Source: Nemertoderma westbladi (Eukaryota; Animalia; Xenacoelomorpha). From it: DNA of 64,000 nt. Position numbers and translations under genes: made by a program. This document shows positions 29,809-60,919 of this stretch, piece by piece. The notes below the pieces were generated by a model. It was not told the DNA's origin and searched no databases. It saw nothing but the letters and a program-made list of their open reading frames with translations. The stretch lies in contig JAUCBJ010001208.1 of assembly GCA_032718475.1 (NCBI GenBank), positions 1 to 64,000 of the forward strand. Reading direction: 5' to 3'. Position 1 is the stretch's first letter; the number at the start of each line of letters is the position of its first letter.

Positions 29809-31386
29809 CCCTATTAGTACCGGGCTATAAAATGTTGTACAAATACCGGAGGGGGGGTCATATTGACCCCCCCTCTAAAATCTACAAATATTTACGAAAA
29901 CGTCTGATTTTTTGTTTGTACGTAGGTATCACTTGTCTGGATCCGACCGAAAAAAAAAATTTCGAAAGAATGTACTTGGGTGGTTATATTGCAGCACCAA
30001 ATTTACAAGTAGTGCACAATTTTCACAAAATTTGAAAGTTACATTTTCGGCTTAATTATTTTTCAATACAGGTTTTCTGGGGCGCAAAATACATTGGAAA
30101 ATATTTAAAAATAATATGATTACTATAAATGGCTGTTTAGTCCTCTCTGCGTAGGAAAAAAATGAAAAAAACAAGTAACCAGCACTTTTCAGTTAGAACA
30201 CAAAATTTTTAATTCACTTATACGATGCTATAAATTCACATTTTCAGGTTTTCGAGGGCCCTGATTCTAATGGAATACATTTCTTATATGCCAGATCATT
30301 GCTACTTGTATTTTTCGGCGTAATTTGGCAGATTTTGGTGCTAGCACCAAATTTCGTACCCATTACCAAAAAAGTACAAGTTTGCGATGTCCAGTGCTGT
30401 TTTTATTGATTCCATCGGATTCAGGACCCTCATAAACCCGTATAACGCAAAAAACAAGATAATACTATCTTCTGATCAATTTGTTTATTTTCCAAAATTT
30501 GGTGCTGGCACAACAATTTTCACCCACCGGCAAAAAAAATACAAGTTTGAGAACTCTTATGAAATTTTTGCTGATTCCATTGAATTCAGAACCAGCAGAA
30601 ACCCGTATAACGCAAGAAACAAGGTGACACAATCAATTGATTTATTTGATGGTTTTCAAAATTTGGTGCTAGCACCACATTTTGCACCCACATCCGAAAA
30701 ATACAAGTTTGAGATGTCTAGTTCGATAATTATATATTCAATTGAATTCAGAACAGCCATAAACCTCTAAAACGCAAGAAATAAATTGTCACAAGCAATT
30801 TTATCTATTGAATTAATTTTCAAAATTTCGTGCTAGCACCAAAATTTGCACACAGCACCGAAAAATACAAGTTTGATACGCTTGGTGCAACTCTTATATA
30901 TTTAATCGAAACCAGAACCCCAAAAAACCCCAATTGCGTAAATAACAAGTTTCAAACAATCAATTTACAAAATTGACATATTTCAAAATTTGGTGCTGGC
31001 ACCACAATTTGGCACCCACCGAAAAAAACAAGTTTGAAATTTCTAAATCAATTTATATGAATTACATCCAATTGTTAACACCAAAATACCGCTGTAAATC
31101 AAAAATTGAGATGTTACAATTCATATTTAATGAAATGTAATATTCAAAAAACGTCTCAAAAAAAGTGCCAAAAGTAGGGTTAAAAAATGGTGCTATAACA
31201 CGAAAACTACCCTATATTTTTGAAAAAGGTTTTCACTACGAGGAAGACAATAGATTTTTAGGAAAAGTCAAAAAATTTCAGATTCCCAACTGCGTTTGTT
31301 TCAGAATTATAATAAAAAAAACACGAGGGGGTCATATTGACCCCCCCCCACCACCCCCCCCCCCCCCCCCCCCGTGTTTAATAGGG
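29809..31386. mobile_element. Non-autonomous piggyBac-like element with internal ~125-bp tandem repeats
   Basis: TTAA|CCCTATTA...TAATAGGG ends, subterminal GGGGGTCATATTGACCCCC palindromes; second copy at 59313-60919. Confidence 0.75.
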
Positions 31387-41621: not shown

Positions 41622-42735
41622 CCTGCACCCATGACATTTGCTAGATCATCCGCTTCTTCAAGGCCAGTGTCCTTTAAGATGCGTCTCAAGAAAGTCATGG
41701 GCTGCCACCATGCTTATTCAGTCCATGAGGCTGCCAAAGTATAAGTTTATGCACTGGCTGGTCCTCACGGTGAAAGCAATGTCCTGCAAAGCAGAGGCGA
41801 TTTTGTTCTAGTGTCAAGCTTGGGGGAACCAAAGAGACACCTCCAATGTTATATAGTGTCTGGTTGGAGATGTGTGCATTGTACTTGACACAATGTACCC
41901 GGCGTAGCATTCTTGTGAATGTGCCATCCAGAGATTTGGTGTCCGCAGCAGTTAGAGCCCAACATGGACTCTCATAGAGAGGTACTGGAACTACTGCTGC
42001 TCTAAATAATCGGACCTTAAGTTTCCGATTAATTCTCGGTGACTTCCAAATCCTGCAAAGCATATTCAAGGCTGCCCAATGCTTTCCCTTACGCATTCGA
42101 AGGTCCTCATCTGACTTCCGGATCCATGATCCCAGGTAACATAAGTCGTCCACATGCTCAAGCATACCATCCTTTGAGCTTATGCTCATCCGATCAGAGA
42201 CTTGCTGAGGACTTTCAAAGTTAACTGTCAAAAGTTTGGTCTTTCTGGAGTTAATAAAAAGACCAACACTAGAAGCAGCATGTTCTAATGAGCTGAGGAG
42301 CCGTTGGGCTCCCTCTAATGATTCTGAGAGTACTCCTAAGTCATCAGCAAAGTCTAGATCAGTTAGGTACTTGGCAGGATTTCCTCGACTTCTGGAGCCA
42401 GTAGGTGGAGTTATCATCACCCCATCATCATTATGATGATCTAAGGACGTGCGTAGAACATAGTCAACCACAATTATGAACAAGAATGGTGCAAGTGTGT
42501 CTCCCCGGAGGACGTCCCATTACACTTCAAATGGTTCTCTGTCACCGTCAACAGTAGAGACAAATGTTATCGAACCATCGTATACTGATCTGATTGCTGC
42601 AATAATTTCATCAGGAATCCCATATAATGAAAGTATGCTGAACATACGTGAGAGAGAGACTGAATCAAAGGCCTTGAAGAAGTCAACAAAGATAACAGCC
42701 AGATGCCTATCTTTCTTTTTTGATAACTCTTAAAT
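41622..42735 (-). pseudogene. RTE-clade LINE reverse transcriptase fragment
   Basis: FVDFFKAFDS, GDTLAPFLFIIVVDYVL, DLDFADDL, YLGSWI; same C-terminus as the other RTE copies. Confidence 0.9.
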
Positions 42736-42899: not shown

Positions 42900-43095
42900 A
42901 TGCAGTTAGGTGTATAATAATACTGTTCGGGTTTGCAATTAGCACAACATTAATTTGACCAAGCAGTTAGGTGTATAATAATACTGTTCGGGTTTGCAGT
43001 TAGCACAACATTAATTAGACCTTGCAGTTAGGTGTATAGTAATACTGTTCAGGTTTGCAGTTACCACAACATTAATAGACAATGCAGTTAGGGCT
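42900..43095. repeat. ~61-bp tandem repeat (~3 copies)
   Basis: GCAGTTAGGTGTATAATAATACTGTTCGGGTTTGCA...CACAACATTAAT repeated. Confidence 0.85.
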
Positions 43096-43639
43096 ATGGT
43101 ATATGTGTAGTCTTTACCACCCTTGTACTCTAGCGACCTTCTAGAGAATTGGTTAGTTAGGTGTATAGTTGATTTGCATGCGTCTGGAGCAGTTAGCACT
43201 TTGGACGAAAAAGAGCTCGTTAGCGTTTCGAGTGGTTTGCCGGTATACGTGTTTGTGCACATTGATATTGGCTTGGAAGGGTAAGAAGTGCTCTACTTCA
43301 TGGCCACCTATACAAAGAATTGTATCGATTATTTGGGTTCTTATTTCGGGTATTAAATATTTAGCGGGTAAAATTAAGCTCTTGCTGTATAAAAATAGCA
43401 CAGGTCGATTCACCGTGTCCCATTCTCACAAATATTCGAGTGTTTAATATAAAGATGTATGATTATTTATTGATTAAAAATTAAATAGTGTAAGAATATG
43501 TCATATTCTCTCATAGAGCCTCTACTTTCCCTATGGTAGGGAATGGGGAACGATTTTCTCTGTATCATAGCAACGTTGTATAATTATTTAACTCTAGCTA
43601 GCTGGGAAGACAGGTAGCAAGCTGGCTGGAGTGTTGAGT

Positions 43640-44487
43640 GTGTCTCAGTAAATCCAATTGTTGGGGTATAACTATATATTAACATGTATTGATGCCTTTA
43701 GCAGGCTTGCTTTTGCCTATGCTATGAAAACAAAAAGGGTATTGAAATTATTAGTATATTGCAAAAAATATTCCAGAAAGGAAAACCAAACAGAATCGCG
43801 ACTGATCAAGGGTCTGAGTTTCTAAATAAATCTGTAAGAAAATATTTAGATACGTTAGGTATACAGTATTACGTAATGTATTCTGTGAATAAGGCGGCTA
43901 TTGTCGAGAGATTCAATAGAACATTAAAAACAAAGATGTTCAAAATTTTTACGCAACGAGGAAATAATGTTTGGATTAAAATTTTACCAAAGCTCATTTA
44001 TGCTTATAATAGGTCATATCATAGGACAATAAAAATGACACCTATTGAAGTTAATAAATTTAATGAAACTGAATTAATGAATAGATTATATGGGAAATAT
44101 AGACAGATTAATCATAAGAAAATAAAATTTAAAGTTGGAGATACAGTACGATTATCTATCGCTCGTACTGCTTTTGCTAAAGGCTATCGAGAACAATGGA
44201 CACATGAATTATTTATTATTCATCGTGTCAGGTTGGATAGAGTACCTGCGGTAATGTTCGATATTAAGGACAGCGCTGGAGCTATAATAAATGGCTCATT
44301 TTGTTCTCACGAACTCCAAAAGGTCCACCCGAATAGTAATATTTATCTAGCAATTGATAAAAATATTGGCAAACTTAAAGAACGTGTACGCAATGGGAAG
44401 AATATTTAATATTTAGTAAAAAAGAAAGAATATTTAGTCCGATTCATCGGATCCAAGAAACAGTCGTGGGTACAGCATATTCAATAA
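43640..44487 (+). pseudogene. Maverick retroviral-like integrase, N-truncated and frameshifted, with chromodomain-like tail
   Basis: GYNYILTCIDAFSR; IATDQGSEF; KAAIVERFNRTLK; YNRSYHRTIKMTP; KFKVGDTVR; EYLVRFIG...SWV. Confidence 0.9.
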
Positions 44488-44738
44488 GCTTAGGTTTATA
44501 CTGTATATTAATTCATTTTGGTCACATATGACCGTAATTAATCAATATTAACTCGAATGATATTACTATATCTATAGTTCATCCGTTTTAAATAAAGCCA
44601 ATATAATATTGATCCCGCGCATATACTGTAGAAGATGCGACAATGAACGTGGTCACAGATGTCTATAATTTAACATTATACTGTACTGTATGTACAATGG
44701 AGTCAAGTAGAGAGAGAGCTTAAATAATAATAATAATA

Positions 44739-45611
44739 ATGGCCACAGATACATATATCACTCTACTTTCAGATAGCTCATTAAACACTTACCCCAATAA
44801 TAATCCTAGTGAGTTTACTGTTGATTTAGCCGAAGAATTATATATTGGTCCAAACGCTAAAATTGGGCTTGCCGAGCTACAATACCAAGCAACATACAGT
44901 AATATTACACTGCAAACTCAAATCTCGCTGTCAATCGGGGTAGATGCAAAAGATGCCAAATTATATAGTTTATTTCCTGGTATGCATAGCTCTATTCAAG
45001 TGATTATTGATGATATAAATAAACTGTTTAATTCTGAAGCGAAATATAGAGATTTCGAATTCATTTTTAATACAAATAATTCTAGAATTAAATTTAAATT
45101 TCCTAAAAAGTTGAAAAAAATACAATTAAGTCTACGTGGTGATTTAATACAAATTCTAGGCTTAAAACCGTTATTGGATCGGAATCATCCAGGTATTCCG
45201 AATTGGGATATATACAGTACCACTACAGTAGATGAATTAAGCAATATAGAACAGCCGATATTAATTTTAAATTATAGCGGACCAAAAATTTCGGAAATTG
45301 GCATTTTAGATTTTCCAGCTCCCACGAATATAACACGTAATAAAGACACTATCTTTATATATACAGATATTATTAAGAGCTCATTTGTTGGTGACGCTTT
45401 AGCTCCGCTCTTAAGAACCTGCCCTTTAACGCAATTAAATCGAAAATATATTAATCACGATTACGAGAGCATTTGCTATTACCCGTTGTTGAATAAAAAA
45501 CTAAAAACAATCTTAATTACTTTACGTGACGGACAAGGCGAATTAATTAATTTTAGCGGAGGTCGCACTGTTATAACACTTAAGTTAATACGGGGTGGCA
45601 GTGATGGATGA
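44739..45611 (+). CDS. Maverick minor capsid (penton-like) protein 1
   Basis: YITLLSDSSLNTYPNNNPSEFTVDL N-terminus; IFIYTDII...VGD..APLLR; ITLRDGQGELINF. Confidence 0.8.
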   Translation: MATDTYITLLSDSSLNTYPNNNPSEFTVDLAEELYIGPNAKIGLAELQYQATYSNITLQTQISLSIGVDAKDAKLYSLFPGMHSSIQVIIDDINKLFNSEAKYRDFEFIFNTNNSRIKFKFPKKLKKIQLSLRGDLIQILGLKPLLDRNHPGIPNWDIYSTTTVDELSNIEQPILILNYSGPKISEIGILDFPAPTNITRNKDTIFIYTDIIKSSFVGDALAPLLRTCPLTQLNRKYINHDYESICYYPLLNKKLKTILITLRDGQGELINFSGGRTVITLKLIRGGSDG

Positions 45612-46449
45612 ATTCTACGTAAGACTACCAAGTAACTCCTGTCCAATTGATTTTCCCCGCAATAGCGCTAGTAATTATCAGATCAATTTCCATGGCGCCT
45701 TACCTATAAACCCAAACGAAAACTGGGTGGTAGGTATAAAAAGTATATTTTACTTAGCTACGTTGCCGTCCATGTATAACAATGTAGAGAATGTTATTTT
45801 ATTAAAAAAAGGAAAAAAAAATTTTGAGGATACACTTCCATCCGGTTTGTTCTACAGTATCAATGACATTATAGATTATTTTAACACGGGGGCATTGAAA
45901 GATAAATTACAAATAGTTGAAAATACTCAGCAAAATAGGTTGCAATTTATTTTAGGGAAAACTGTGCGAGAGTTATTTATAGGTCAACAATTAGCCTATT
46001 ATTTTGGAATTACTGAAAATAATCTCGGTGCGAATTTAAATCCAAATTTTAAAATTATTTTGAAGACGAAAAATAATATAAAGGGTTATTTAATAAAGGT
46101 TATCGGAAATGGAGAAAAAGCTTACCAGATGGTATTTTTATGCCCTCAACCACCCAATTCTATTCCAGAACCTAAGTCGAACATGTACGTGACTACTAAT
46201 ATAATTGAAAATCAATATATTAATGACTTTGGTTTAGCTTTACTTCGTCGTGTTGCGATACCTGATGACGTGAAATATGGTAGCGTAATAAATAAAGAAT
46301 TTGTCAAGGATACAATTCATTATATCCCTGTAAAAAAATCATATAAGATAACATACATTCATATTGAAATAACAGACAAAGAAGGAAAAGATTTGAATTT
46401 TGAATACGGGACAACATCTATTACATTACACTTTAAACGAATAAATTAA
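45595..46449 (+). CDS. Maverick minor capsid (penton-like) protein 2
   Basis: FYVRLPSNSCPIDFPRNSASNY; MYVTTNII...LLRRV; IEITDKEGKDLNF..GTTSITLHFKR. Confidence 0.8.
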   Translation: MAVMDEFYVRLPSNSCPIDFPRNSASNYQINFHGALPINPNENWVVGIKSIFYLATLPSMYNNVENVILLKKGKKNFEDTLPSGLFYSINDIIDYFNTGALKDKLQIVENTQQNRLQFILGKTVRELFIGQQLAYYFGITENNLGANLNPNFKIILKTKNNIKGYLIKVIGNGEKAYQMVFLCPQPPNSIPEPKSNMYVTTNIIENQYINDFGLALLRRVAIPDDVKYGSVINKEFVKDTIHYIPVKKSYKITYIHIEITDKEGKDLNFEYGTTSITLHFKRIN

Positions 46450-46450
46450 A

Positions 46451-47011
46451 ATGGATTCTGATTTATTTCACAGATACAGTAAACCTCAATATGGTGGTGC
46501 AGACTCGAATCTTGCTGTTTTTAAAGGTGGTAGAAGTACGAGAGGCTCGACGCAAGTTCCTGTTTTTCGAGGTGGTTCATATATTGACCCTTACGGTCAA
46601 CAAATTGGCGCATTTGGTCCAAACTTAAAACAACGTCATTTTCAGCGTTATCCTAGAGGTATGAGGACAAATCAACACGGAGAAGGTATATTTACAGACG
46701 CTTTATCAACATTGAAAAAATTTGGTAAGCCATTAGCTAAAAAAGTTTTACAAAAAGCTTTACCATTTACCACAAAATTTATGAGACAACACGTAATACC
46801 AAAAGGTAAGCGGGTCTTACATCAGCAGGCTAATACGGTTATTAATAAAGCATTAAATAAAATGAAACCGTCAACAAGGTCAGTTGTAGAAAAAGTTTAT
46901 AGAGATTTAAAGCGACCCGCTAGACCAATGTCTATGAACATATATCATCGACGTAGTAAAAAGAGAAATATAAAAGGCAAACTGAAACACTGCGAAAAAA
47001 GTATTTTTTAA
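46451..47011 (+). CDS. Basic virion core/membrane-active protein with adenain-type cleavage motifs
   Basis: QYGG, VFKGG, VFRGG and QHGEG followed by amphipathic IFTDALSTLKKFGKPLAKK; Arg/Lys-rich; position between minor and major capsid genes. Confidence 0.65.
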   Translation: MDSDLFHRYSKPQYGGADSNLAVFKGGRSTRGSTQVPVFRGGSYIDPYGQQIGAFGPNLKQRHFQRYPRGMRTNQHGEGIFTDALSTLKKFGKPLAKKVLQKALPFTTKFMRQHVIPKGKRVLHQQANTVINKALNKMKPSTRSVVEKVYRDLKRPARPMSMNIYHRRSKKRNIKGKLKHCEKSIF

Positions 47012-47013
47012 TA

Positions 47014-48273
47014 ATGTCAATTATTAAGGAATTAGATTTATTTTCTACACAGCCAATACAGACTGAATTTAAAGTAAAGCATTATGAAACAATTTACCCC
47101 ATATCTAATCTCAGAAGTGAGTCTAGGGAAGTCACGTTCCTTGTACCGAGATCCAATGAATTCTATACGAAACTGCAAGATGCGTTATTAATTACAAAAT
47201 GTACTGTACGGTGGGATAGACGACTTGAAAATTCCCATATATATATGCTGAATTACCCCGCTGAAACTATGTGGAGTGATATTAAAATAGACCTTAATGA
47301 GAAGCAGGTTGAAAATAGCAATAACCATTATTTCTACAAGTCGTACTTATCCAATTTATTATTTACAACTTACGAGGATAAAAATGGGCTACTGGGTGCG
47401 GGTGGCTTTCATCAGCCTTTATCTGAGCACGGAAATGAAATTGATCCAAGCGCGCATCCTATTGGCGATGCCTTTAGTAAACAAATGCAATTTGTAAGTG
47501 GATTGACGATTGATTTTGATACTGAAAGCAAAATAATACAACCCGGGTATGATTTAAGAATGCATTTTAGAAAAGTATCAAATTCGTTTATTTTTAAAAT
47601 CACTCCAAACGCAAACGCGGTGACAAATCTTCGGCTAGAATTAGATGAAATAAAGATCCTAATCCCTAGAATGGAGGTTAATCCGGTAATAGAAAGCAGT
47701 CACCTAAAAGGTTTAGAGAGTTACGATATTGAATATCAATTCCAAAAAAAGGAGGTTACAACATTTACTATTCCCGCTCAAACCACAAATTACACCCAAA
47801 CAAACATATTTGATGGTAAAAAACCCAAATTAGTTATTATCGGCTTCATAACAAATAACGCTTATTCGGGAGAATTAATTAGCAATCCCTTGAAATTTGA
47901 ACATTTTAACCTTAGACGCGCGGAACTGATTGTAGACGGTCTTCCAGTAGGTGGTGTAATATACGAGCCTAATTTTACAGATGGAACATATATTTTTGAG
48001 TATACTCAATTAATGAAGAACATTAATACATATATTAATGGTTATGGAGGTAATAATATAGACCATGAAACCTACTTAGGTAATTGCCCCATCCTATCCT
48101 GGGACTTAACCGCCGATGGCTATGTTAGAGATCCGCAACCGTCGATATATACTAACGGCCAATTAAAATTAAGATTTGCCGAACCGTTGGTTGAAACCAT
48201 AAATGTAATCGTTTTTAATATTTATGATCAATCATTAAGTTTAAATAGCAGGAAAGAAATACATATCGATTAA
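47014..48273 (+). CDS. Maverick major capsid protein (double jelly-roll)
   Basis: ELDLF...IQT, YFYKSYL..LL, PKLVIIGF...AYSG....NPLKFEHFNL, WDLT.D, LKLRFAEPL motifs. Confidence 0.88.
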   Translation: MSIIKELDLFSTQPIQTEFKVKHYETIYPISNLRSESREVTFLVPRSNEFYTKLQDALLITKCTVRWDRRLENSHIYMLNYPAETMWSDIKIDLNEKQVENSNNHYFYKSYLSNLLFTTYEDKNGLLGAGGFHQPLSEHGNEIDPSAHPIGDAFSKQMQFVSGLTIDFDTESKIIQPGYDLRMHFRKVSNSFIFKITPNANAVTNLRLELDEIKILIPRMEVNPVIESSHLKGLESYDIEYQFQKKEVTTFTIPAQTTNYTQTNIFDGKKPKLVIIGFITNNAYSGELISNPLKFEHFNLRRAELIVDGLPVGGVIYEPNFTDGTYIFEYTQLMKNINTYINGYGGNNIDHETYLGNCPILSWDLTADGYVRDPQPSIYTNGQLKLRFAEPLVETINVIVFNIYDQSLSLNSRKEIHID

Positions 48274-48275
48274 GT

Positions 48276-48731
48276 ATGTTATCTACAGAGGACCTTGATA
48301 TGTTTCCAGTGGGTGGTCACTATTTGGGAGCGTTTCCAGCTAATAAATTACCTAAATTAGATAATAATAATAAGCGAAGAGATTATGGGTTAATAGTAAA
48401 TACCGATAAAGAGCATCTGCCCGGGATTCATTGGATCGCAATATATATACGAGATAATGAGGCTGAATTATTTGATTCATTTGGATCAAAATATCCAAAC
48501 AGATGCATCGAAAAATGGCTTGAGAAAAATTCCGCAAGATGGCGTACTACTCGCAAACAATTTCAAGACCCTAGGCGGACCACATGCGGTCTATACTGTC
48601 TTTATTATTTGGTAAATCGAATTCACACAAACTATCCAATGAGTGCGTTTACAAATAATGTGGAAATAAATGAAATAATATTATATAAATGGCTTATTAA
48701 TTATTATAAAATAAACCAACAAGCGTTGTAA
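48276..48731 (+). CDS. Adenain-like cysteine (maturation) protease
   Basis: IVNTD...PGIHWIAI, FDSFG, Q.....CGLYCLYYL. Confidence 0.92.
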   Translation: MLSTEDLDMFPVGGHYLGAFPANKLPKLDNNNKRRDYGLIVNTDKEHLPGIHWIAIYIRDNEAELFDSFGSKYPNRCIEKWLEKNSARWRTTRKQFQDPRRTTCGLYCLYYLVNRIHTNYPMSAFTNNVEINEIILYKWLINYYKINQQAL

Positions 48732-48762
48732 TTAATCATTTAGCTTTTGTTTATCAGATAAA

Positions 48763-49365
48763 ATGGATAATATTATTTTTGTTGATTTTCAATATTTTAA
48801 GATAGACAATAAAGAGTATCCGGTAGTATTTAAAGAATTTGCTATATTCGATTCTAATTACACCAAAACTAATGTAAAGACGTTTTTAATTAAAGGCCCA
48901 CCTAATATTAAGTTATCAGCTTTAGATGTAGCTCACGTAAACAATTTACGAGACATGACTTCTCATTTGCCCTGGGACTACGGTGACATTTCGCAAGATG
49001 ACTTTAAAAAATATATGAAGAGACATTTAAAATATAAAAAAAATATACATGTATTTGGGTTGCTGAAACGGGCAATATTAGTTTCCCAACTTGATGTTCT
49101 CGCACCAAATTCGGTGGAGAAATTGGGAATATATAAGCAATATCATGATTATTTAACCCCCTGTCGCTTCCACGATCAATTTACTACAGTAGAAAATAAA
49201 TGTGCGTTCCACTTAAACATAAAGGATAACTGTCTGCGATACTGCTCAGCAAAACGCATTGGGGGGTATGAGATGCTACACTTTTTCATGAGAAAGCGTT
49301 TAACTGCGACTGATGATGATAAACAGAAAGAAATAACTGCAGTGGAAGATGTACTCATACTGTAG
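48763..49365 (+). CDS. Maverick accessory protein, DEDD-exonuclease-like fold with C-terminal Cys/His cluster
   Basis: IIFVDFQ...FKEFAI, HLPWDYGD, CAFH...CSA; fold assignment from motif memory only. Confidence 0.55.
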   Translation: MDNIIFVDFQYFKIDNKEYPVVFKEFAIFDSNYTKTNVKTFLIKGPPNIKLSALDVAHVNNLRDMTSHLPWDYGDISQDDFKKYMKRHLKYKKNIHVFGLLKRAILVSQLDVLAPNSVEKLGIYKQYHDYLTPCRFHDQFTTVENKCAFHLNIKDNCLRYCSAKRIGGYEMLHFFMRKRLTATDDDKQKEITAVEDVLIL

Positions 49366-50502
49366 GTTTAACTGCGGTGGAAGATGTACTCTTACAGTAG
49401 GTTTACTCTAAGCTTGTAATGTGATGGGATAATATATTTGTTTTAATGTCAATAAAAAATAATAAAAACATTAAAATCTTTTTTTATATCGCTGTTTACA
49501 CTCACAAACACAACACACCTACCGGTAGCCCCCTGTTGTATCAGAGTTTAACTACCAGTAGCTAGCTGACTTTACACATACAGACATATAGAATGGCGGA
49601 ATGGCGCCCTTCTAGACTGACAGCAACCACAAGGCTTTAGCACAAGGCTTACTAAATAATAAAATTAAATTAACTCAACATGGAGGGTTCGTGAATGCCG
49701 CATTAGAGAGGCCCACCTAACAATAGGCCTACTGGTACCGAGGGCCCTGTAGCCCTCTTCCAACCGTATACCAGTACTTGAGGATAGAGCAAGAGCATAC
49801 CGGTTTCTTTGATTTAAGGATTACACTATTACACTTGAATGCTTCCAATTTTCTGTTTACAACTTTAATTGGTCTAATCTACATTACTGCGGGCGGGCTA
49901 CTACTGTCGCATAGGTAAGCCTATACAGCTATTGTTAACTTTATGCGGGGCCCTTTTTCACATGTTGACCCAATATGGTTTATGGTTAACCTTTAGTACT
50001 CGTGGATAGGTAAGGTGCACTTTCATTCGGTTAGGCATATAGGCCTAATGACTTACTCCTCAACTGAAAGTTGACTAGCTCATTGATACAATAGGTGTGG
50101 TTAGGTACCGGTAGCGCTATAGGTCCTATAAAATCCCCTCGCACTCTCTGTTACTAACTTTCTACATTCACTCTATGTTGTATGCTTCTTTACAGTTAAC
50201 CTTTAGAACTCTTGGTTAGGGGCGCCATCATTCAACCAGTCATATAATGGTTCCACTCGGATACAATAGGTGTGGCTCGCAGTATACCTAACTAAGCCTA
50301 TATAAAATCCACCCCATTCTCTGTTACTAACATTCACTCTATGTTGACGGGGGGACTATATAAAACATAGTTAATTTATTTATGTATTCGCTTTTTTTAA
50401 ATTATATATAAAATAGATTCGGTCTACTAAGTTTTATAAGCAACAATAACTGATAACAATAACAACAACAACAACACTAAATTTATTACTGTATTATACT
50501 TT

Positions 50503-50919
50503 TTATAGTCCTATATGTGGGTCCCTCTGTAGAGTTTCCTCCATTACCGGTACCTGTAAATGGTTGTTTATAGGCCTAACTTCTACCGGTCTTTGTGTTG
50601 GTATATTGAAGTGAAGCGTATCATCAACATCATTCTCCCAATTTTCACTAGAGGGTGAGCTTCCCGATATTTGCGGTTGTATCTTTATAACAAGCGAGAA
50701 ATCTTTTGAAATTTCAACCTTTGTAGGCGATAAAGGTAGACCATCTACTTGACCTACTCCATATTCTACCGAAGTAAACCCAATCTCAAATTTGTGGTTT
50801 ATATATCGCAACTCCATCTCAGCAATATTGGATGCTGAGAGATATGTTTCGTCGCTTGATTGCAATTCGATTTTGATACAACTTTTCAACTCACGGTTAT
50901 TGAAAAAGGCGAATGTCAT
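50503..50919 (-). CDS. Hypothetical Maverick protein
   Basis: 138-aa ORF in the minus-strand cassette followed by AATAAA; no recognised motif. Confidence 0.45.
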   Translation of the reverse strand: MTFAFFNNRELKSCIKIELQSSDETYLSASNIAEMELRYINHKFEIGFTSVEYGVGQVDGLPLSPTKVEISKDFSLVIKIQPQISGSSPSSENWENDVDDTLHFNIPTQRPVEVRPINNHLQVPVMEETLQRDPHIGL

Positions 50920-51602
50920 CTTCGAGTCGAGGTAAGTTGTCGTCGTCGTCGTAACTAGGTACCGGTAAGAATATCTTTAAATTGAATAGGTAGGCCTACT
51001 GATATTTTTTTCTTCTTTTGTTTAACAAAATTATAGTTCACTGTCAGAAAAATTGAGTTTATATATATTTTTGTAGAGGGTCGCAGAGGTGTACATTACA
51101 AAATTCTCATAGTTAACAAAATGCACAACATAAACCTTTCCCAGGCGGATTAGCGATATATGCTCTGTTCGTTGTTCTATTCTGAATGTAGGGAGATGCA
51201 TAGCCGATGTTTTAATGATATGTACCGGTATACAGACTAGTAACAGATAGGAGGGCATCGTCTTTGACTATGAATGCCAGCACATAGCCCTAATCTTTTC
51301 TCACTGAGCTTAGCGTTGCCCGCCGCACTCACGCACACTCATAAGTAACAGATGCGCTATTGTAACTCACTCGTGAGCAACAATGCCAAGTTAGCTAGCT
51401 AGCTACAGCCCCTGAGTATACTATGCCTACTTGTGTGTTACAAGCAGCAATCGCTCTACCGAAGTTAATTTCCCCTCAAACTAGTTGTTGATTTAAAAAA
51501 AAAAATATTCATAATTTTTTTCCAACCAATTTAATATATATATATTTTACAGTAAAAATCTCCACCACCAAACAGCAACAACAACAATAAATTTCACTCA
51601 CA

Positions 51603-52154
51603 CTAATTATATTTTACAACAAAAACCCTCGCACCAAACAATAATAAATTATTAACCAGTTTGTTGAATATAGGGTAATATATATGAAATTTAAACGGGG
51701 AACACATTAATGTACATTTACCGGTGTAGAAGCAGCAAACAACAACATTATTATTTATTCTGACTTTACAGTTATTGAATATTTCAGGTTCATATATAAC
51801 TTGAAGTTGCACATTATCAAAGACAACATAAAACCCGGTATTGTTTATCAATAACCTATAGACTACAGACTTAATACTAAAAATATAAGTACATAAATTA
51901 ACAGATTTTAAAATCAAATTAATACTAGTTTTATCAAATATATGCTTTTTTACTTTTTGGAAATTATACTTACTGCCTAATAATGTAATACGACCATTTT
52001 TAAATATTAATAATGTAGCACCAAATATCTTATATATAAACTGATTTGGTTTGAATATGTGTTTACCAGATAATTGATTTTTTAATTCTTTAAAATTAAT
52101 CGCTAACACTTGCTGGCAACTTATATTTTTATTTACAATTTGATAATTCATCAT
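51603..52154 (-). CDS. TATA-binding-protein (TBP)-like protein, ~183 aa
   Basis: Two TBP repeats: QIVNKNISC..INFKEL...FKPNQFIYK..ATLLIFKNGRITLLGSK and IYEPEIF...VVCCFYTGKCTLM; probable ATG at 52154 overlapping the polB 3' end. Confidence 0.75.
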   Translation of the reverse strand: MMNYQIVNKNISCQQVLAINFKELKNQLSGKHIFKPNQFIYKIFGATLLIFKNGRITLLGSKYNFQKVKKHIFDKTSINLILKSVNLCTYIFSIKSVVYRLLINNTGFYVVFDNVQLQVIYEPEIFNNCKVRINNNVVVCCFYTGKCTLMCSPFKFHIYYPIFNKLVNNLLLFGARVFVVKYN

Positions 52155-55100
52155 CAACACTGTCGTCTTTTGGTTCTTCATAAATTGGTATATTTGATAT
52201 TTGTATAGGTTTTTTGAGGTTTGTTTTATAGTGCCCCCAAGGAAGCGAATGATTTTTATTAACCCAATAAAGTTTATCGTCAAAGCTACTGAGTGCAAAT
52301 TTATTTCTCTTTAAGGTATAAATACGATGTAATTTAGATTGAAATCTGTGTATGTTTTTTTTTATTTCTTCATTTGAGTTATATGCTTTTAAATATTCTT
52401 CATATATTCGTTTCCACAACAGCTCTTGTAATACCTTTTGCTCTACGAATATTTTTGTTATTCCATTCCAAAATTGAATATAATTTTGGTCTTAAAAATA
52501 CTGCTTGTTTAATTTCACGTGAGGCTAGCTCGTCTTTACAGTAATAGAGTTGGGATTTATTTTTATCACTGTAATGAGGGTGATCCTTAGGGTAATTGGA
52601 AGTATCTAAAATATTATTTTTAATTAATGCTTTTAAAAAATTATTCTGTGATGTATTATAATAACAACCTATTAAAGAGTCAGTGTCTGATGCAGCAATT
52701 TCAATACGACAGTTTAATTCTTTCTCAATAGGTAGCAATTTATTGTAAAACAGCTCATACATATCCAATTTAGCCAAGTCCAACACAGCGCTACCAATAA
52801 ATATAGGCTTATCGAGAGTTACAGAGTCTTTCACTAATAAATGTCCCGATAATGTATTATTGTATATTATAAATTGTTCATGATTAATACGATTTACCAA
52901 TTGATCGCATTTATCGTTGCTATTTGCGATACGAAAGTCACATCGATCTCTTATCTTTTCTATTGATTTGCCAAACAGTGAATTATTGAGCAATTTCGCG
53001 ACAGCAGTTTCAATGTAACTTTTTGCTAGGCGCCTTTGATTAATATTAAAATCTATGTAGGGTTTAAATACAAATTCTTGTTGAAAAGAATATAATTTAT
53101 GTAGTTTAGTAACAATTAATCCATGTTTTATATAAAATTTTAACAGTTTCAAATGTAAATGATAAAACTCTTTATCAAATTGCGTCAGCAAGAGTTTTGG
53201 TGTAGACATCCTATATTTACGGGAGGTACCTCTTTGTATCGATAAATTATTAAATTGTTCCCTCATATAAGGTGAAAGCATTGATTCATTTATACTTAAA
53301 TGCTCTGGGGCTAACGGTAATTGTAATGTTTGATCGTGAATAGCTTTAGGATAATTTAAATCACATATTAAAAAATATCCAGTAGATCCATCAATGTCTA
53401 AATCTACCAAGTACTCGATTAGTTTTTCTGGAATTGCATTCTCTAAATGTTTAATACTTACTTCTTTGAATTGCGAGGTGGGTAGTTTTTTACTTAAATT
53501 CCCTGAATATAAAGAGTTGAAATCAATATTAAATATATGGCATTCTTCCTTAGTAGAATCATATGTACTTGTTCCTGGTATATTTGATTCTATATAATGC
53601 TTTCGACAAAATGAAACACCACCCCTAATTGATTTTTCAAAATCTCTATATGTCTGATAATCCTTTATTAATTCTATTTTACATTTATTATATTTTAGTG
53701 CGCAATCATAGGTAAATGACGCGATACTACAGTAAAAAACCACTTCTAAATCGTAATTTTGTTTACAAACATTCCTAAAATTCTCAAATATATCAGCAAG
53801 CAAACAAACATCGAGTTTTAAATAGGCTAAAAGATAATCTTTGAGATTCACACAGTCGAATTCAACCCATGATAATTCCGCAAACCTATAATCTTCAATT
53901 GTACATGTTTTTTGACTTAAGTTACTAAAAAAATTATTTATAAATGGTAAACTAGTATCATTAAATTTATTAATATCTGTCAAGTACTCGTATGGAAATA
54001 CTCCTTTCCGTTTAATTGTTGAGTTATTCAAGTTTGGATAAAAATATTTCATTTCTTGTAGAGTAATAGGTAAAATTGAGCTTATATCATGACTCGCTAC
54101 ATCCTTTGTTGAACACTCAACTAAATTACTTAAAGAAAAGCTTAAAAATTGATATGTGTCCAAGAAACGTAACTCAATTTTTTTAGAAGTGTTTTTAATT
54201 GGGATAAATGCATTCAGTGAAATATATCGTTCTGTATTTCTCGGTATAACCTTTATATCCCAATCTGTGTATTTCTTATCTCTAAATCCGGTTTGTAATA
54301 TACAATGTATATCGTAGTTGTTGGAATTGTGCCCGCAAAGTATATACAGGTATCGTTTCAATGATAAACTTCGGTTACAACTATTATAGGCTGCCGCAAT
54401 ATATTTACCTATAATATGTGAATGATGTCTGTTTTTCCCAACATTATTATTTAAAGTAACATTACAATAGAAACAGAATTTTGCTTGTTCAAAATTTACA
54501 AAATCAATATTAGTAAATGACATGGTTTTATGAGTATATATGTCTGACCAACAACATAATTCAGTTAAATCAGTATATAATGAATCTAAGAAATCTTGAA
54601 TACAATTATTATTATTATTTGTCTTTACAAATGTTTTCAAATGACATTTTGGTGGGTCAATTAATTCAGTATTGGGAACAATTAAATAACTCACAACACA
54701 CGGTATATGCTCCTGTATAAATTGATTATTAACTGAAGGTTGTAAGATACATTCTATATCAAAGTAGGTGACAAACAATGGGGATAAGGTTCTATCTAAA
54801 TTTGTAAAACTAATGTGTGTTCTTTTTTTATTAGGTAGTTTCTCGCGTTGACTTCTTCCTTGGTAGCATACAAGACGGTGTCGATGAAGAACTTCCGCTC
54901 GAAAAAAATGAGCCAAGCACCTTTCACAAAATTGCCTACCTCGAGTATGAAGAGCTCTCGTATTCAGCAATCGATTCAAGTTAGTTATGCAAACATAATG
55001 ATTCAGTTTAGGTACATTGTTATTTTTTACTACAAGTAATATATTTAATAACTGTTTATCAGGTGTAATTTTACTAAACGGAGGTTGTCTTAATATAGAT

Positions 55101-56189
55101 AGATACAGGAGTGTGTTTGTTGTCGTTATTCCAACATAGTAAATTAATTATATATTTTGAATTTTGTTTTTCAAAAAGTTTAATCGCTAACTGCCACTCT
55201 GTTGGATAATCTTTGTTCCCATTGTCAAAAATGAAATGACTCATATAATTTTTGTACAATGAAGTATGGTTTTTGTTGTTTTTCACTTTGCTACCAAATT
55301 TTGCGGATATAATAGCCCATTTGAAACAATCATTATCAGCTGTTTGTATATTTATTGTACATTTTTTAGCTGATAAAGCCTTAGGTAATTCCATATATCC
55401 ATGCCCCTTATATAGTAACGACCTACACTTAGATTCAGCTAATTTAATTTCAACCCTTAATAAAGATTTAATACGCCACCCCGAACCACGTGTGTTAAAG
55501 ATGGCTATTTTTTGTAATATATTTCCCAGCACATACTCAAACCATGTGTCAAAACTTTGCGGTGAATCTACAGTATTAATAGCACCACCGGAAGAATTAA
55601 AATAAAAGGTTTCCAATTGCTTGCCTTCTGAAAAATGTGATCTGTACATTAATACATTTAAACCTAACCACAGTCTAAGAACATTCATTTCTTTCAATCT
55701 ATCTAATATTAACTGAAGAATATTACCTCGAATTTGTGCTAATGCTGTTTCTACATCGGGATAATCTCTAGAAGTTGGGAGGTCGTGGACATAAATTTCA
55801 AGACGATTATCGTGAGCTTCTTGTTCCCGCGTAAAAATTGTTGCGCATGTACCAAGAGCCACCCTTAAGTTTTTTCTGGATATTATATTTTTATGTTGCG
55901 GAAATTTACGCTTTCTTGTGTAGTAACATTTCAAGTGACAGTCGTGTCATATATAATTCTCATATGTATACTCTTTATTACAGGTAGAACAAGTCAATTG
56001 ATAGGTGCGGAACTCCATTTCTTTACAACCAGTAGTTGATTCATGTCGTTTACAAATTTCGCTGCATGAAGTCACGACATGACACTTAAAACAAGAATAA
56101 CCTTCAAAATGTGACTGTAGGTGGCGTAAGTAATTATGTCTAGTTACATTCATATGACAGAATGAACAACATATTGTTATTTTATCCAT
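52129..56189 (-). pseudogene. polB: Protein-primed family B DNA polymerase (pPolB) with N-terminal C2H2 fingers and endonuclease-VII-like insert; disrupted by one stop and two frameshifts
   Basis: YFDIEC, GHNSNNYD, RFLDTYQF, RKGVFPYEY, YLKLDV, IDFNSLY, KLLNNSLFGK, SDTDS, LRPKLYS, RAKGI, LSSFDDK; fragments 55947-56189, 55074-55934, 52400-54979 and 52129-52419. Confidence 0.93.
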
Positions 56190-56381
56190 ATTGAAGTTTG
56201 TTTAGATAAATAATAATAATAATAATAATAATAAAGTATGTCCAAAGATTAAAATAAAATGAAATGATACGATATTGACTATATCTAAACATTTATATGA
56301 TAGCGAGGGAAATAATTTTAAACCAATCACCAATCGCTTATGACTATTGGAAACCGCAAAGAGTTTAACTTATGATTAGGT

Positions 56382-57443
56382 TTACATATTAGGATAATAA
56401 TAAGGTTTCCATGGAGAATTAGTAACAGGCTCTACTAGAACTGGGTTACTGACAACTTTATGTTTCTTTGCAGGTGATGCGTTGGTAAATTTACTCGATG
56501 ATCTTGGCTTCCGAGGTAATATTTCAGGAAAGACCTGTTGCGGTTGAGAGCAACTCTCTTCAACATCCGGATTAGGTGATGGGATCTCTACGAATGCTTT
56601 AGGTTTATCCAAAAGGACAAAACCGTCAACATGGGCTTCAGTAAGAGAAACGCCATCCATCGATTCTTTGAGAAAACTAATATGGGCTTTATCATTCAAG
56701 TAATGCAACTCAATAGAATTTCCGCCGGCACCTACTTCAGTAGAATTATCGGTGTTGGTGATAATAATTTTTTTATTATTGGTTTTAATCATTTTGAGCC
56801 GGTCTGATAATTGAATGATATTTTTATCAAAAAGATGCTTGTCTGTTTCATCGACTTGGTTGTCCCACTCTCGCAACAAAACGGTTAGTTCCTGTTTTGA
56901 CAAATTGAAACCCGTATAATAGTTAAAACCAACACTATCAGCGTATCTGAGGCTGATTTTCCATAAGCCAACATAGTTGGTTCCTTTAAAAGCTGTTACA
57001 AATCCAATAAACTCTGGATTTGATAATTCAATGTAGAATTGATCGCTAATAATCTCTAGCGGTGGAGAGATTAATTGCAATAATTTCCCTCTGTATTGAA
57101 TTAGAACTTCAGTAAAAGCTTTGTGAACTTTGCATTTGCCTTGTTTCTGAACGTAAACATCACCCGATGTGGGGTTGATGGAAATATTCAAATTTCCCCG
57201 CGCAAAACGAAGAGTTGGATATATCCTACCTGGTATAATTGCTGGTCTGGATTGATGTTGGTTGTTGTTGGTTGTTTCTAGAATGTCTAACAAATAGCGG
57301 GTATCTTGATGGGAAAAACAAATTGATTCGTTGTCCTCCTGAGATTCCACAATAAAATACTTGCTGTGTACGACGGTACAAGTATATTTATTGTAAGTAA
57401 ATTTCCAGCTATTTGTTGCTCCGGTTTTTTGCGTTAAGGCCAT
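56382..57443 (-). CDS. PC4/Sub1-like ssDNA-binding protein
   Basis: FVTAFKGTNYVGLW...TGFNLSKQEL resembles the PC4 V..FKG...V.IR...GI.L...Q pattern; basic NLS-like PAKKHK in the tail. Confidence 0.55.
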   Translation of the reverse strand: MALTQKTGATNSWKFTYNKYTCTVVHSKYFIVESQEDNESICFSHQDTRYLLDILETTNNNQHQSRPAIIPGRIYPTLRFARGNLNISINPTSGDVYVQKQGKCKVHKAFTEVLIQYRGKLLQLISPPLEIISDQFYIELSNPEFIGFVTAFKGTNYVGLWKISLRYADSVGFNYYTGFNLSKQELTVLLREWDNQVDETDKHLFDKNIIQLSDRLKMIKTNNKKIIITNTDNSTEVGAGGNSIELHYLNDKAHISFLKESMDGVSLTEAHVDGFVLLDKPKAFVEIPSPNPDVEESCSQPQQVFPEILPRKPRSSSKFTNASPAKKHKVVSNPVLVEPVTNSPWKPYYYPNM

Positions 57444-57497
57444 AATAATAATAAATACGAAAAATATTACAAGTGATAAATTTTAAACCGTATCGCT

Positions 57498-57919
57498 GTA
57501 ATAAATTGACACCATAGTTCTCACTCTAAAATTGTGTTGGTCGGAAGACGAGACCAAAGAAAAATGATGCTGAGTTCGACATTAGGTATCGACCAAAAAA
57601 CAAAAATTGAGCTACTAATAAACTATTTAACAAAAATCTTGATCTTAATTTGCGATTTGAAATATCCCAAAGATATTCATGATCGTACATTAGAACTACC
57701 CTTAGCCCCGTCAGTATCAAGATTTGTTAAATAGTTTAAATAGTAGCTCAGATTTTCGTTTTTAGGTCGATACCCAATGCTGGAATCAGTATCATTTTAT
57801 GAGGTGTCGTTTTCCGACCAACGAATATACAACGAATAAGATAATGTAGAAATTATTAAGGAAATAACACAATTTCAGAGTGAGAACAAAAAAAATTAGA
57901 TATGGTATCAATATATTAC
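57498..57919. other. Long imperfect inverted repeat (hairpin) containing polB-derived sequence, flanked by 22-bp direct repeats
   Basis: Arms 57498-57643 and 57716-57919; loop encodes LICDLKYPKDIHDRTLELPLAP; direct repeats ATTACAAGTGAT(A/G)AATTTTAAA at 57466 and 57927. Confidence 0.85.
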
Positions 57920-59312
57920 CATGAAGATTACAAGTGATGAATTTTAAATAAAAACATTCAGTTATATAAGTTTCTGAATACGTGATGTGGCATAGTCAAC
58001 GTAGAAGAGATGGGATGTGGCATAATGGACGAATAAGAAAAGAGATGGGTTGCAATGTGGATAGGAAATACGTGAAAGAATATGAATCATAGGGTTGTGT
58101 GTAATAATAATCAATAATTATAATAAAAACGCACAGTATAATGTTAGTAGTAGTAGTAGCCTTTCAATATGGCAAAGATGCTGCGGGATCGGTTAGCTTG
58201 AGTAACTACTATGGAAATGCTCGTATACGTGTAGTTGACACGAGGCGGAATTTCATGCACATGTATCATACTGAGTGGTTGGTTTGTTGGTTTGGCGACG
58301 GCTGTCGTGGAGTTGGCAATCGATATAATATAATATATGCGCGATGCGAGTAGTTGGTGGCCACGTCGTCGTTGTCACCATCATATACAGTATACAGCGG
58401 TGGTGGTGGTGGTGATGGTGACGTGGTGAAAAGGTGAATAACATTAGGGTTAGTAGTTAGTTAGTCAGTCAGTAAGGCGGGCATCCGCGAGGTTAGGCTA
58501 CGCTACGCTACGATTGGTTGATGGCAACTGCCGATCGATGGATGGTGGTGACAGATGTGGCGCGCACCGCAATTTAGCACCGGAATTTGGCATTTTTTAA
58601 TAGCCCTCCGAATGGAATGTGCATAGCCCAGGCTTAGGGAGGACTTTGTTGGGGGCCATGCTTTATCTACTACTAATGGGAAACTACTTTGGAGGAATAT
58701 GAAATATCAAGGTGGTCAACAAAGTAAAATTGTTTATTGTCCATCAAATGAAACATTTGCCACTTTAGGTTGGCCTTTTACAGTTATCTATATAATGGAT
58801 TTTATAACTGGAGAAATCATTAATAAAATTATGAATGAGATGACCACATATGACATTACTACAGTACTATTGCTTGCTTTTCAAATAATCACCATCATAA
58901 TTGGTAAGTTGCATAATAATAATTTGAAAATCGTTAGGACTGTACTTATTGCTGTAAAGAAAATCGTCTGTTTGTTTGATTGTCTGTGTGTATGTGAACG
59001 TTATTATTGGAATGGAAGGGATCATGCTCTACTTGGTGAAGGGTCAAGTATACTATAACTATATACTACAAGTGATACTATAACTCTGTCAAACTGTCCT
59101 TCTTATGTGCTGAAAGTCTTCTAATAGCCAGCTTGCTGACACTGATGACATCTAGTTCTATAAATAGTCACATATTGTAATGCCTCAAAACACATTGGCT
59201 GAGGCATTACATGAGGTCTCCTCCCTACTTATTGCTAGTAGGGTGGAGCCCTACTATTTAATTTTAGAAATTCAAATATAACAAGTCAGGAAAAATATCC
59301 TCTCCTAATTAA

Positions 59313-60919
59313 CCCTATTAGTACCGGGCTATAAAATGTAATATAATAATTTATTATTGTTATTTAATAAAATGTTGTACAAATACCGGGGGGGGGGGGG
59401 TCATATTGACTATGACATATTGATTGTTTGTACGTAGGTATCACTAGTCTGGATCCGACTGAAAAAAAAATTTTGAGAAAATGTACTGGGGTGGTTGGTT
59501 ATATTGCAGCACCAAAATTACAAGTAGTGCACAATTTTCACAAAATGTGAAAGTTACCTTTTTCGGCTAATTGTTTTTCAATACAGCATTTCTGGGGCGC
59601 AAAATACATTGGAAAATACTTAAAAATGATATGATTACTATAAATGGCTGTTTAGTCCTCTCTGCGTAGGAAAAAAATGAAAAAAAACTAGTAAACAGCA
59701 CTTTTCAGTTAAAACACAAAATTTTTAATTCATTTATACGATGCTATAAATTCACATTTTCAGATTTTCTAGGGCGCTGATTCTAATGGAAAACATTTCT
59801 AATATGCCAGATCATTGCTACTTGTATTTTTAGGCGTAATTTGGCAAATTTTGGTGCTAGCACCAAATTTCGAACCCATCACCAAAAAGTACAAGTTTGC
59901 GAAGTCCAGTGCTGTTTTTATTGATTCCATTGGATTCAGTACCCTCATAAACCCGCATAACGCAAGAAACAAGATGATACTATCTACTGATCAATTTGCT
60001 TATTTTTCAAAATTTGGTGGTGACACAACAATTTTCACCCACCGGCGAAAAATACCAGTTTGAAAACTCTTATGGAATTTTTACTGATTCCATTGAATTT
60101 AGAACCCTGACGAACCCGTATAACGCAAGAAACAAGGTGACACAATCAATTGATATATTTGATGGTTTTCTAAATTTGTGCTAGCACCACATTTTGCACC
60201 CACTTCCGAAAAATACAAGTTTGAGATGTCTATTTCGATAATTATATATTCCATTGAATTCAGAACAGCCATAAACCTCTAAAACGCAAGAAATAAATTG
60301 TCACAAGCAATTTTATCTATTGAATGAATTTTCAAAATTTCGTGCTAGCACTAAAATTTCCACACAGCACCGAAAAATACAAGTTTGATACGCTTGGTGC
60401 AACTCGTATATATTTCATCGAAACCAGAACCCCAAAAAACCCCAATTGCGTAAATAACAAGTTTCAAACAATCAATTTACAAAATTGACATATTTCAAAA
60501 TTTGGTGCTGGCACCACAATTTGGCACCCGCCGAAAAAAACAAGTTTGAAATTTCTAAATCAATTTATATGAATTCCATCCAATTGCTAACACCAAAAAA
60601 CCGGTGTAAATCAAAAATAGAGATGTTACAATTCATATATAATGAAATTTTCAAAATTTTCAATGAATTTTTTTTTTTCAATGAATGAAATTTTCAAAAA
60701 ACGTCTCAAAAAAAGTGCCAAAAGTAGGGTTAAAAAATGGTGCTATAACTCGATTACTACCCAATATTTTTGAATACGGTTTTTATTACTAGGAAGACAA
60801 TGGTTTTTTAGGAAAAGTCCTAAAGTTTCAGATTCCCAACTGCGTTTGTTTCAGAATTATAATAAAAAAACCACGGGGGGGGGGGGTCATATTGACACCC
60901 CCCCCCCCCCCCCCCCAGG
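59313..60919. mobile_element. Second copy of the non-autonomous piggyBac-like element
   Basis: TTAA at 59309-59312 and 60920-60923; highly similar to 29809-31386. Confidence 0.8.

Follow-up and report, generated by a model that had tools for sequence, protein, structure and literature searches.

A very divergent TATA-binding-protein-like gene predicted in a many-copy Maverick/Polinton-type element of Nemertoderma westbladi

Gene content of the element

The window analysed here is a stretch of 64,000 nucleotides of the Nemertoderma westbladi assembly (contig JAUCBJ010001208.1). An element of the Maverick/Polinton type occupies it from about 43660 to 58300, with its genes arranged in two convergent arms and 14.6 kb retained (Table 1). 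The rightward arm carries an integrase remnant, two penton-like ORFs, a basic ORF, a capsid-like ORF, a C5 protease and a 200-aa ORF. The leftward arm carries a 353-aa ORF, a protein-primed polymerase (pPolB), a TATA-binding protein (TBP)-like gene and a 138-aa ORF.

Table 1. Features of the element and of the two Polinton-type elements used for comparison (L008/L009 and L010).
Feature	Position	Strand	Evidence and remarks
Retroviral-type integrase remnant	43664..44472	+	Pfam rve E 5e-5, below cut-off; tblastn E 5e-24 to L008/L010 integrases
Putative minor capsid (penton-like) protein 1, 290 aa	44739..45611	+	tblastn 2e-6 to 5e-6 to long post-integrase ORFs of L008/L010
Putative minor capsid protein 2, 281 aa	45604..46449	+	Weak: E 0.04 and 7e-5 to related loci
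Basic ORF, 186 aa	46451..47011	+	No significant Pfam family
Putative major capsid protein, 419 aa	47014..48273	+	tblastn E 1e-29 and 9e-21 to L008/L010 ORFs
Adenovirus-type C5 maturation protease, 151 aa	48276..48731	+	PF00770 E 7.3e-6, 26.2 bits (cut-off 21.3)
Accessory ORF, 200 aa	48763..49365	+	Atlas 0.95 to unnamed, mostly arthropod clusters; 0.88 to PF13017
138-aa ORF, next gene after TBP	50503..50919	-	Not TFIIB-like
TBP-like gene, two lobes	51603..52181	-	Pfam TBP, fold model; C-lobe stirrup intact, N-lobe stirrup three residues shorter
TATAAAA box, candidate TBP promoter	52224..52230	-	Lies in the 3' coding piece of polB; first TBP ATG 49 nt further on
Protein-primed PolB, divergent class, broken	52129..56189	-	55946-55074, 55147-52400 and 52491-52129 in three frames
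353-aa ORF before polB	56382..57443	-	No Pfam match, no PDB sequence match
TBP and TFIIB, overlapping genes	L008:5261-6372 (= L009:5858-6969); L010:2987-4224		Between the capsid/protease block and the integrase

The putative capsid identities are drawn from likeness to unannotated ORFs of other elements, and Pfam gave no match for any of the three ORFs. The major capsid protein was assigned from its size, its site beside the protease and its likeness to the L008/L010 ORFs, and is likewise putative. We take the basic ORF to be a probable core protein and assume a PC4-like single-strand-binding likeness for the 353-aa ORF. For the 200-aa ORF there is a lead only, a distant Maelstrom-like one, to a possible nuclease-fold accessory gene.

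Five sequencing runs from four studies contain part of the stretch; one may be the source of the window, and four were compared. The copy studied here is broken. Its integrase remnant has lost the 5' part, and what is left is interrupted by a frame break close to the 5' end and stops prematurely close to the 3' end. That the left arm is missing is seen from contig 25 of run X5, which continues past 43667 for about 500 letters in other sequence. With this arm gone, the A32 packaging ATPase of L008 had no tblastn match in the window. One element end is lost, and no long arm pair of terminal repeats was found flanking the genes. None of the retained ORFs was identified as an RNA polymerase gene, and Rfam gave no match in 43000-59500.

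Several repeats were noticed in and around the element. A duplicated unit lies between the convergent arms (50085-50180 and 50260-50346, about 175 nt apart); a TATA-like box is present in each copy, the two share three blocks 16-32 nt long, and they could be tandem small-RNA promoters or cis elements. Nested inverted repeats with arms of 22-47 nt at 57517-57887 surround a second, short polB-like fragment (57642-57710, + strand), and several contigs skip about 130 nt within this interval. Elsewhere, the flanks are crowded with further repeats: the window starts with a 17-nt satellite and contains reverse-transcriptase remnants (1960-2787 and 41695-42519) and a 1.5-kb element present twice (about 29850-31360 and 59400-60900). 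DUF5641 ORFs, presumably of Bel/Pao type, lie at 10115-13684 and 16374-17192.

Identity and extent of the TBP-like ORF

The TBP-like ORF is open on the reverse strand from 52181 to its stop at 51603 and encodes 192 aa from the first ATG. Alternative ATGs at 52154 and 52151 would give 183 and 182 aa, respectively; the former corresponds to the intact frame of about 183 codons described in a previous sequence-only reading of this DNA, and the frame is indeed open. Among the three ATGs, only 52151 has a purine at position -3 (A, the first two having T), as do nine of nine other element starts examined, so that it may be the real start.

The ORF was assigned to the TBP family by Pfam (PF00352, 34.1 bits for a cut-off of 22.9, E 2.4e-8), with two stretches covering both lobes. 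When the two halves were searched alone, the best match of each was TBP, just under the cut-off (E 1.3e-4 and 1.8e-3). A profile built without the query scored the ORF at 37.0 bits, the best value among 1000 shuffles and the reversed sequence being 8.2. In the Atlas, 29 of 30 matches were TBP clusters (up to 0.94) with a recognition value below threshold, which gives weak support to this identity. The two-repeat TBP signature of the sequence-only reading is thereby borne out, both quoted motifs being present at residues 56-71 and 130-135 (YEPEIF).

The product corresponds to nearly all of the TBP core with no N-terminal extension. Its divergence is considerable, with an identity of at most 28% to any alignment row and 17-20% to solved TBPs. 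Single-sequence searches matched none of 106 candidates and gave two weak matches among 1.84 billion representatives, and a search of PDB sequences returned chance myosin matches only. Close relatives were also sought with pattern scans for the loci that encode them, without a match in viral or genome contigs, and the same kind of scan was blank for the TFIIB pair and for the capsid alignment; such scans are insensitive and do not imply absence. Judged from its sequence, the ORF represents a TATA-binding-protein gene that is intact and very divergent and that belongs to a many-copy Maverick/Polinton-type element.

A GT-rich block of 24 nt, 92% alike, is found on the reverse strand 3' of both the TBP stop (51571-51594) and the stop of the 138-aa ORF (50461-50484). 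It may be a shared 3'-end signal, which would suggest that TBP has its own transcript end.

Predicted fold and residue anatomy

The AlphaFold2 model of the ORF reached a pLDDT of 73, and about 90 over the N-lobe, from an alignment of 91 TBP-like rows. This input biases the fold, and the pLDDT obtained from three rows was 36. Foldseek returned 44 matches at E≤0.001, TBP-containing throughout among the matches listed, with the next at 2e-3. VIA gave Z scores of 10.6-12.9 for 38 TBP entries and 7.5 for the next entry, and in the viral structure library the giant-virus TBPs were closest to the model. Residues 106-123 are unresolved in the model and the rmsd to cellular TBP is about 4 Å. The ORF is predicted to adopt the TBP saddle fold; the sequence-only reading had made its case depend on such a fold, and the model matches solved TBPs (VIA Z 12.9).

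Residue matches were read from alignments, with yeast TBP numbering counted from the reference sequence. The C-lobe retains Y130-E131-P132-E133-I134-F135, R141, F151 and G154-K155 (yeast Y185-F190, R196, F207 and G210-K211) and the N-lobe T56, L58, F60, G63, G69 and K71 (yeast T112, L114, F116, G119, G125 and K127). Both acidic residues of the C-lobe stirrup are therefore present, E131 and E133 (yeast E186 and E188, the TFIIB contact). The equivalents of T124, T215, G216, P191 and G192, several of which are central DNA contacts, are replaced, and the otherwise invariant PG and GAK motifs of the C-lobe are gone.

The intercalating phenylalanines of TBP are four in number, and we take them to be F99, F116, F190 and F207. 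The equivalents of the last three are clear in the window protein. For F99, MAFFT aligns F48 with it and opens a 3-residue gap after; the model strands (41-44 and 47-52 versus 128-131 and 137-142) and the lobe-to-lobe register place the gap on F99 itself. In the model the N-lobe hairpin turn has 2 residues and the C-lobe stirrup 5; in the lobe-to-lobe register F48 pairs with C138, not F135. On the basis of this short turn and register, the F99 equivalent is probably lost. The motifs quoted in the sequence-only reading are correct, but they conceal this asymmetry between the N-lobe and the C-lobe.

Compared with cellular TBP and TRF2/TBPL1, the window protein shares the predicted saddle fold (Z 12-13), the YEPE-F stirrup and three DNA-contacting phenylalanines. 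It differs from cellular TBP by its low identity, by a shortened N-stirrup and first long helix, and by the replaced residues listed above. It has a phenylalanine in the N-lobe where TBPL1 reportedly has a tryptophan, a position which we assume to be that of F116. An aromatic residue is found at L5.1 in both lobes (F60 and F151), L5.1 being inferred to correspond to yeast F116/F207; the phenylalanine at this position is described as a key DNA contact by Ravarani et al. (2020, PMC7221094). The same source gives the basic patch of the N-lobe as the site for TFIIA, TAF1, Mot1 and Brf1. In the window protein the N-lobe helix 74-85 is shortened, with lysines still present and in a register that is not alignable with the cellular basic patch.

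The changed central contacts and the probable loss of one intercalating phenylalanine raise the prospect that DNA binding by the window protein may be weak or lost. A decoy or dominant-negative TBP, which would sequester host TFIIB or TATA boxes and dampen host transcription, or would repress the element in latency, would accord with an anatomy in which the TFIIB-binding loop is the best kept part and the equivalents of T124, T215, G216 and probably F99 are changed. Such a protein would hardly be expected to retain three DNA-contacting phenylalanines and the R196 equivalent at 17-20% identity, and the contact between TBP and TFIIB is weak in the absence of DNA. We consider a decoy quite unlikely.

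Origin of the gene

Run X1 contributed 19291 contigs, among which 4477 were 90-95% alike and 939 less than 90% alike, which points to an element in many diverged copies. Contigs covering TBP were 4-10% diverged. One of them bridges TBP and polB (contig 20 of run X4, 650 nt with 67 other letters), and contig 21 of the same run aligns gap-free with 345 nt of TBP, differing at 13 letters. The GC3 of the TBP gene is 0.26, the element ranging from 0.22 to 0.35 and two outside ORFs from 0.36 to 0.39.

Three trees were computed as quick searches, with 58, 22 and 24 rows picked from about 120 matches and with long-branch warnings, the branch of the window TBP being very long (4-5.5 changes per column). 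A sister place to one named animal TBP was rejected (p-AU 0.021), in a tree that includes no TRF2. Placement was not rejected with the eukaryotic TBPs as a whole (p-AU 0.11), with the L008/L010 TBPs (0.30) or with the giant-virus TBP of locus L019 (0.12). The phylogeny proposed in the sequence-only reading has thus rejected the animal sister place and left the L008/L010, giant-virus and whole-eukaryote placements all allowed.

A recent retrocopy of a host TBP, the origin that the same reading had named as fatal to an element TBP, is ruled out by the 4-10% diverged contigs, one bridging TBP and polB, together with the rejected animal sister place. These data support TBP as a gene of the element, as far as sequence comparison goes.

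Long-term constraint on the ORF is, from the alignments, clearer than recent constraint. The window protein keeps 19 of 40 columns that are invariant in 33 eukaryotic TBPs and 5 of 35 variable ones (Fisher p 0.003), the reference TBPs having come from a search seeded with relatives of the window protein. Three of the four differences inside the TBP gene are synonymous, among 40 listed of about 1000, which is too few for a selection test, and no indel fell inside the gene among 12 listed of 118. At the counted density of breaks, about 0.8 of such ORFs would stay open by chance, so that selection cannot be read from the intact frame of this copy.

A once-functional viral TBP decaying family-wide, or an old captured host gene carried passively, would account for the very long branch, the loss of the PG and GAK motifs and the broken state of this element copy, and the allowed placement with eukaryotic TBPs would suit it. 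The preferential keeping of invariant columns, the mostly synonymous differences listed, the lack of an in-gene indel among those listed and the rejected sister place to an animal TBP all argue against decay or passive carriage, which we hold to be very improbable.

Overlap of TBP with polB

The polB gene is broken into three frames, with a probable zinc-finger-like start at 56189-55947, before a stop. Its overlap with TBP is of 23-53 nt depending on the TBP start. The overlap reported in the sequence-only reading is thus real, although it involves only the last, out-of-frame piece of polB, the main polB frame stopping at 52400. Homologous polymerases match this last piece (52491-52129) as far as 52168-52207.

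A search with PolB gave 757 matches among 7991 candidates scored, the best at 44%, and PF03175 had no match in the window PolB. By description, and judging from the missing PF03175 match, the polymerase fits the divergent class called Beta in the available text of Starrett et al. (2021, PMC8502044). None of 13 loci with a related polB carried a TBP, at least 2 kb downstream being covered in 8 of them; the survey for a TBP beside polB, suggested by the sequence-only reading, accordingly came out negative for these 13 loci. TBP is therefore an accessory gene of such elements.

These data also bear on a DNA-bending protein acting at replication origins, terminal repeats or in packaging, a role that would explain the same-strand overlap with the 3' end of polB and be at ease with the lack of a private promoter motif (see below). 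Replication generally does not need a TBP, as judged from the 13 loci, and the two acidic residues of the stirrup would be needless for bending. This role appears distinctly improbable to us.

TFIIB as a probable partner

TFIIB was searched for over 1370 frames of the window and was not found (best E 0.08), a result that holds for the retained 14.6 kb. The gene following TBP is 680 nt away and is not TFIIB-like. A metagenome scan led to the recovery of two different elements of the Polinton type, L008/L009 and L010, whose TFIIB gene comes immediately after TBP. In L008 and L010, Pfam E values were 9e-16 and 5e-8 for TBP and 1e-7 and 9e-5 for the TFIIB repeat, in addition to a zinc ribbon. These elements encode an rve-chromo integrase and a C5 protease, with an A32 ATPase in L008, and in the sequences compared their polymerase genes fall outside the available DNA.

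Like the window, L008/L009 and L010 have a TBP alongside an rve integrase, a C5 protease and related capsid-like genes. In contrast, their TBP lies between the capsid and integrase blocks and is followed by TFIIB, whereas that of the window lies behind polB without TFIIB, and their TBPs are only about 18% identical to the window protein. They also have an asparagine at the position of the first stirrup glutamate. According to the portions of Ravarani et al. available (PMC7221094), the two C-lobe glutamates contact TFIIB, viruses with their own TFIIB often alter them, and TFIIB is present in almost all viruses that have a TBP. Kept glutamates in the window protein and no TFIIB in the retained DNA fit this co-variation and thus favour host TFIIB as the probable partner, in a comparison of two elements with one truncated copy.

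The window element may instead have encoded a TBP-TFIIB pair and lost its TFIIB gene with the left arm. TBP and TFIIB stand directly together among integrase and protease genes in L008/L009 and L010, a clade with the L008/L010 TBPs is allowed (p-AU 0.30), the ATPase and the start of the integrase are absent from this copy, and the near-constant presence of TFIIB in TBP-bearing viruses (PMC7221094) points the same way. Nevertheless, TFIIB overlaps the TBP 3' end in L008/L010, and here the next gene is distant and not TFIIB-like; the stirrup resembles that of the host throughout, and TBP is placed after polB, outside the capsid block. A lost TFIIB is, in our opinion, unlikely.

Candidate promoters

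A TATAAAA box is found 45 nt before the capsid-like ATG (at 46969), 49 nt before the TBP ATG (at 52230) and 58 nt before the ATG of the 200-aa ORF (at 48705), the last with an initiator-like TCATT 33 nt further on. For 3 genes out of 10 to have such a box 45-58 nt upstream of the start codon, the probability by chance is about 0.006, the feature having been chosen after it was seen. The enrichment disappears with the looser TATAWAW (P 0.15), pairs of TATA and initiator are at chance level (3 versus 1.7), and in none of 20 settings did a shared upstream motif exceed the shuffles. The sequence-only reading had proposed late capsid expression as an example of what the TBP might direct. No private promoter motif accompanies it, and since the boxes precede the capsid-like, 200-aa and TBP genes alike, they do not mark a late class; the late-capsid idea is unsupported, being neither shown nor excluded.

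The TBP could also serve the RNA polymerase of a co-infecting large DNA virus, in a virophage-like manner, and not host Pol II. Giant-virus TBPs are the closest in the viral structure library and TBP is found on the giant-virus contigs L017-L019; the trees neither establish nor reject a clade with the L019 TBP. The host-like stirrup, the ordinary TATA boxes as candidate promoters and the integration into a nuclear genome speak against a helper virus, which we regard as extremely unlikely.

Proposed function and relation to known systems

The kept TFIIB-binding stirrup makes a role in the recruitment of host Pol II plausible. The explanation that we prefer, and to which we give about even credence, is that the TBP product would bind TATA-like promoters of the element and recruit host TFIIB and Pol II. 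One intact pair of DNA-kinking phenylalanines, together with the acidic stirrup, would allow the protein to bend AT-rich DNA and to hold host TFIIB, and the remodelled N-lobe would be under weaker control by TFIIA, TAF1 and Mot1/BTAF1. The densely packed genes of the element, with promoters that would sit inside upstream coding sequence, would thereby reach Pol II independently of TFIID.

TBP-like genes are known in large DNA viruses. The sequence-only reading implied that an element TBP would be unprecedented: TBP is indeed outside the usual core set, but Starrett et al. (2021, PMC8502044, Fig. 5 legend; preprint bioRxiv 697771) already label a TBP-like gene in a MELD virus whose PolB is adintovirus-like. 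What that virus and the window element have in common is a TBP-like gene in a midsize linear dsDNA virus or element with such a PolB. In the available text the gene is a label only, without residue analysis, partner or mechanism, in a section mostly on non-animal data sets. We found no analysis of a Maverick TBP in the literature, where this legend is the sole direct precedent; subscription papers, figures and preprint supplements may hold more.

In the accessible part of their description (PMC7221094), the TBP/TFIIB systems of large dsDNA viruses share with the window protein the two lobes, the L5.1 phenylalanine in both and a remodelled regulatory surface of the N-lobe. They are mostly orthogonal TBP-TFIIB pairs with altered stirrup glutamates, whereas the window protein has both glutamates and no TFIIB alongside, in an integrating element of 14.6 kb remaining. 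The features of an orthogonal viral pair are thus absent from the retained 14.6 kb. In the portion available, a further preprint (bioRxiv 2022.05.25.493380) treats TFIIB in giant viruses only.

The TBP mimics of beta- and gammaherpesviruses, such as KSHV ORF24, hijack Pol II (bioRxiv 10.1101/2025.08.25.672222, available text). As a viral protein with a TBP fold in a virus dependent on host Pol II, ORF24 offers a functional model for the explanation preferred here. It has extra domains and pre-assembles with Pol II and ORF34, in a model incompatible with direct binding of TFIIB (10.1101/2025.08.25.672222). The window protein, in contrast, consists of the bare TBP core alone (about 180 aa), its TFIIB loop is intact, and the search for a private late box was negative. 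The multi-domain build of the ORF24/UL87 type is not seen in its 192 aa, nearly all of which are TBP core.

To our knowledge, how Mavericks turn on their capsid genes, and whether virions are made, is an open question. An element TBP gives a handle on capsid-gene switching, in the form of one small protein with a measurable site, partner and timing. Should the protein work with host TFIIB alone, it would be a natural minimal TBP separating the TFIIB-docking half from the regulated half, and viral TBP mimicry would extend from large viruses to small integrating elements.

More tentatively, and with the balance of our judgement against it, Mavericks might hold the most compact viral capture of Pol II initiation known so far, in two forms: a rewired TBP-TFIIB pair, or a single bare TBP that keeps its grip on host TFIIB, has shed the cell-regulated lobe and reads promoters within the coding sequence of the element. 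In that case a single small gene would turn a silent integrated copy to the expression of its virion genes. The contrast between TBP-only and TBP-TFIIB elements predicts that the first stirrup glutamate is kept where the element has no TFIIB and changed where it has one.

A group of short TBP-like proteins of 162-200 aa ('CNIV': P0004, P0125, P0128-P0138, P0140, P0141 and P0171), kept out of the glutamate comparison, was also noticed. These proteins have a threonine at the position of the first stirrup glutamate and sit near the L008/L010 TBPs in the quick trees; judging from their sequences, they may be further element-borne TBPs.
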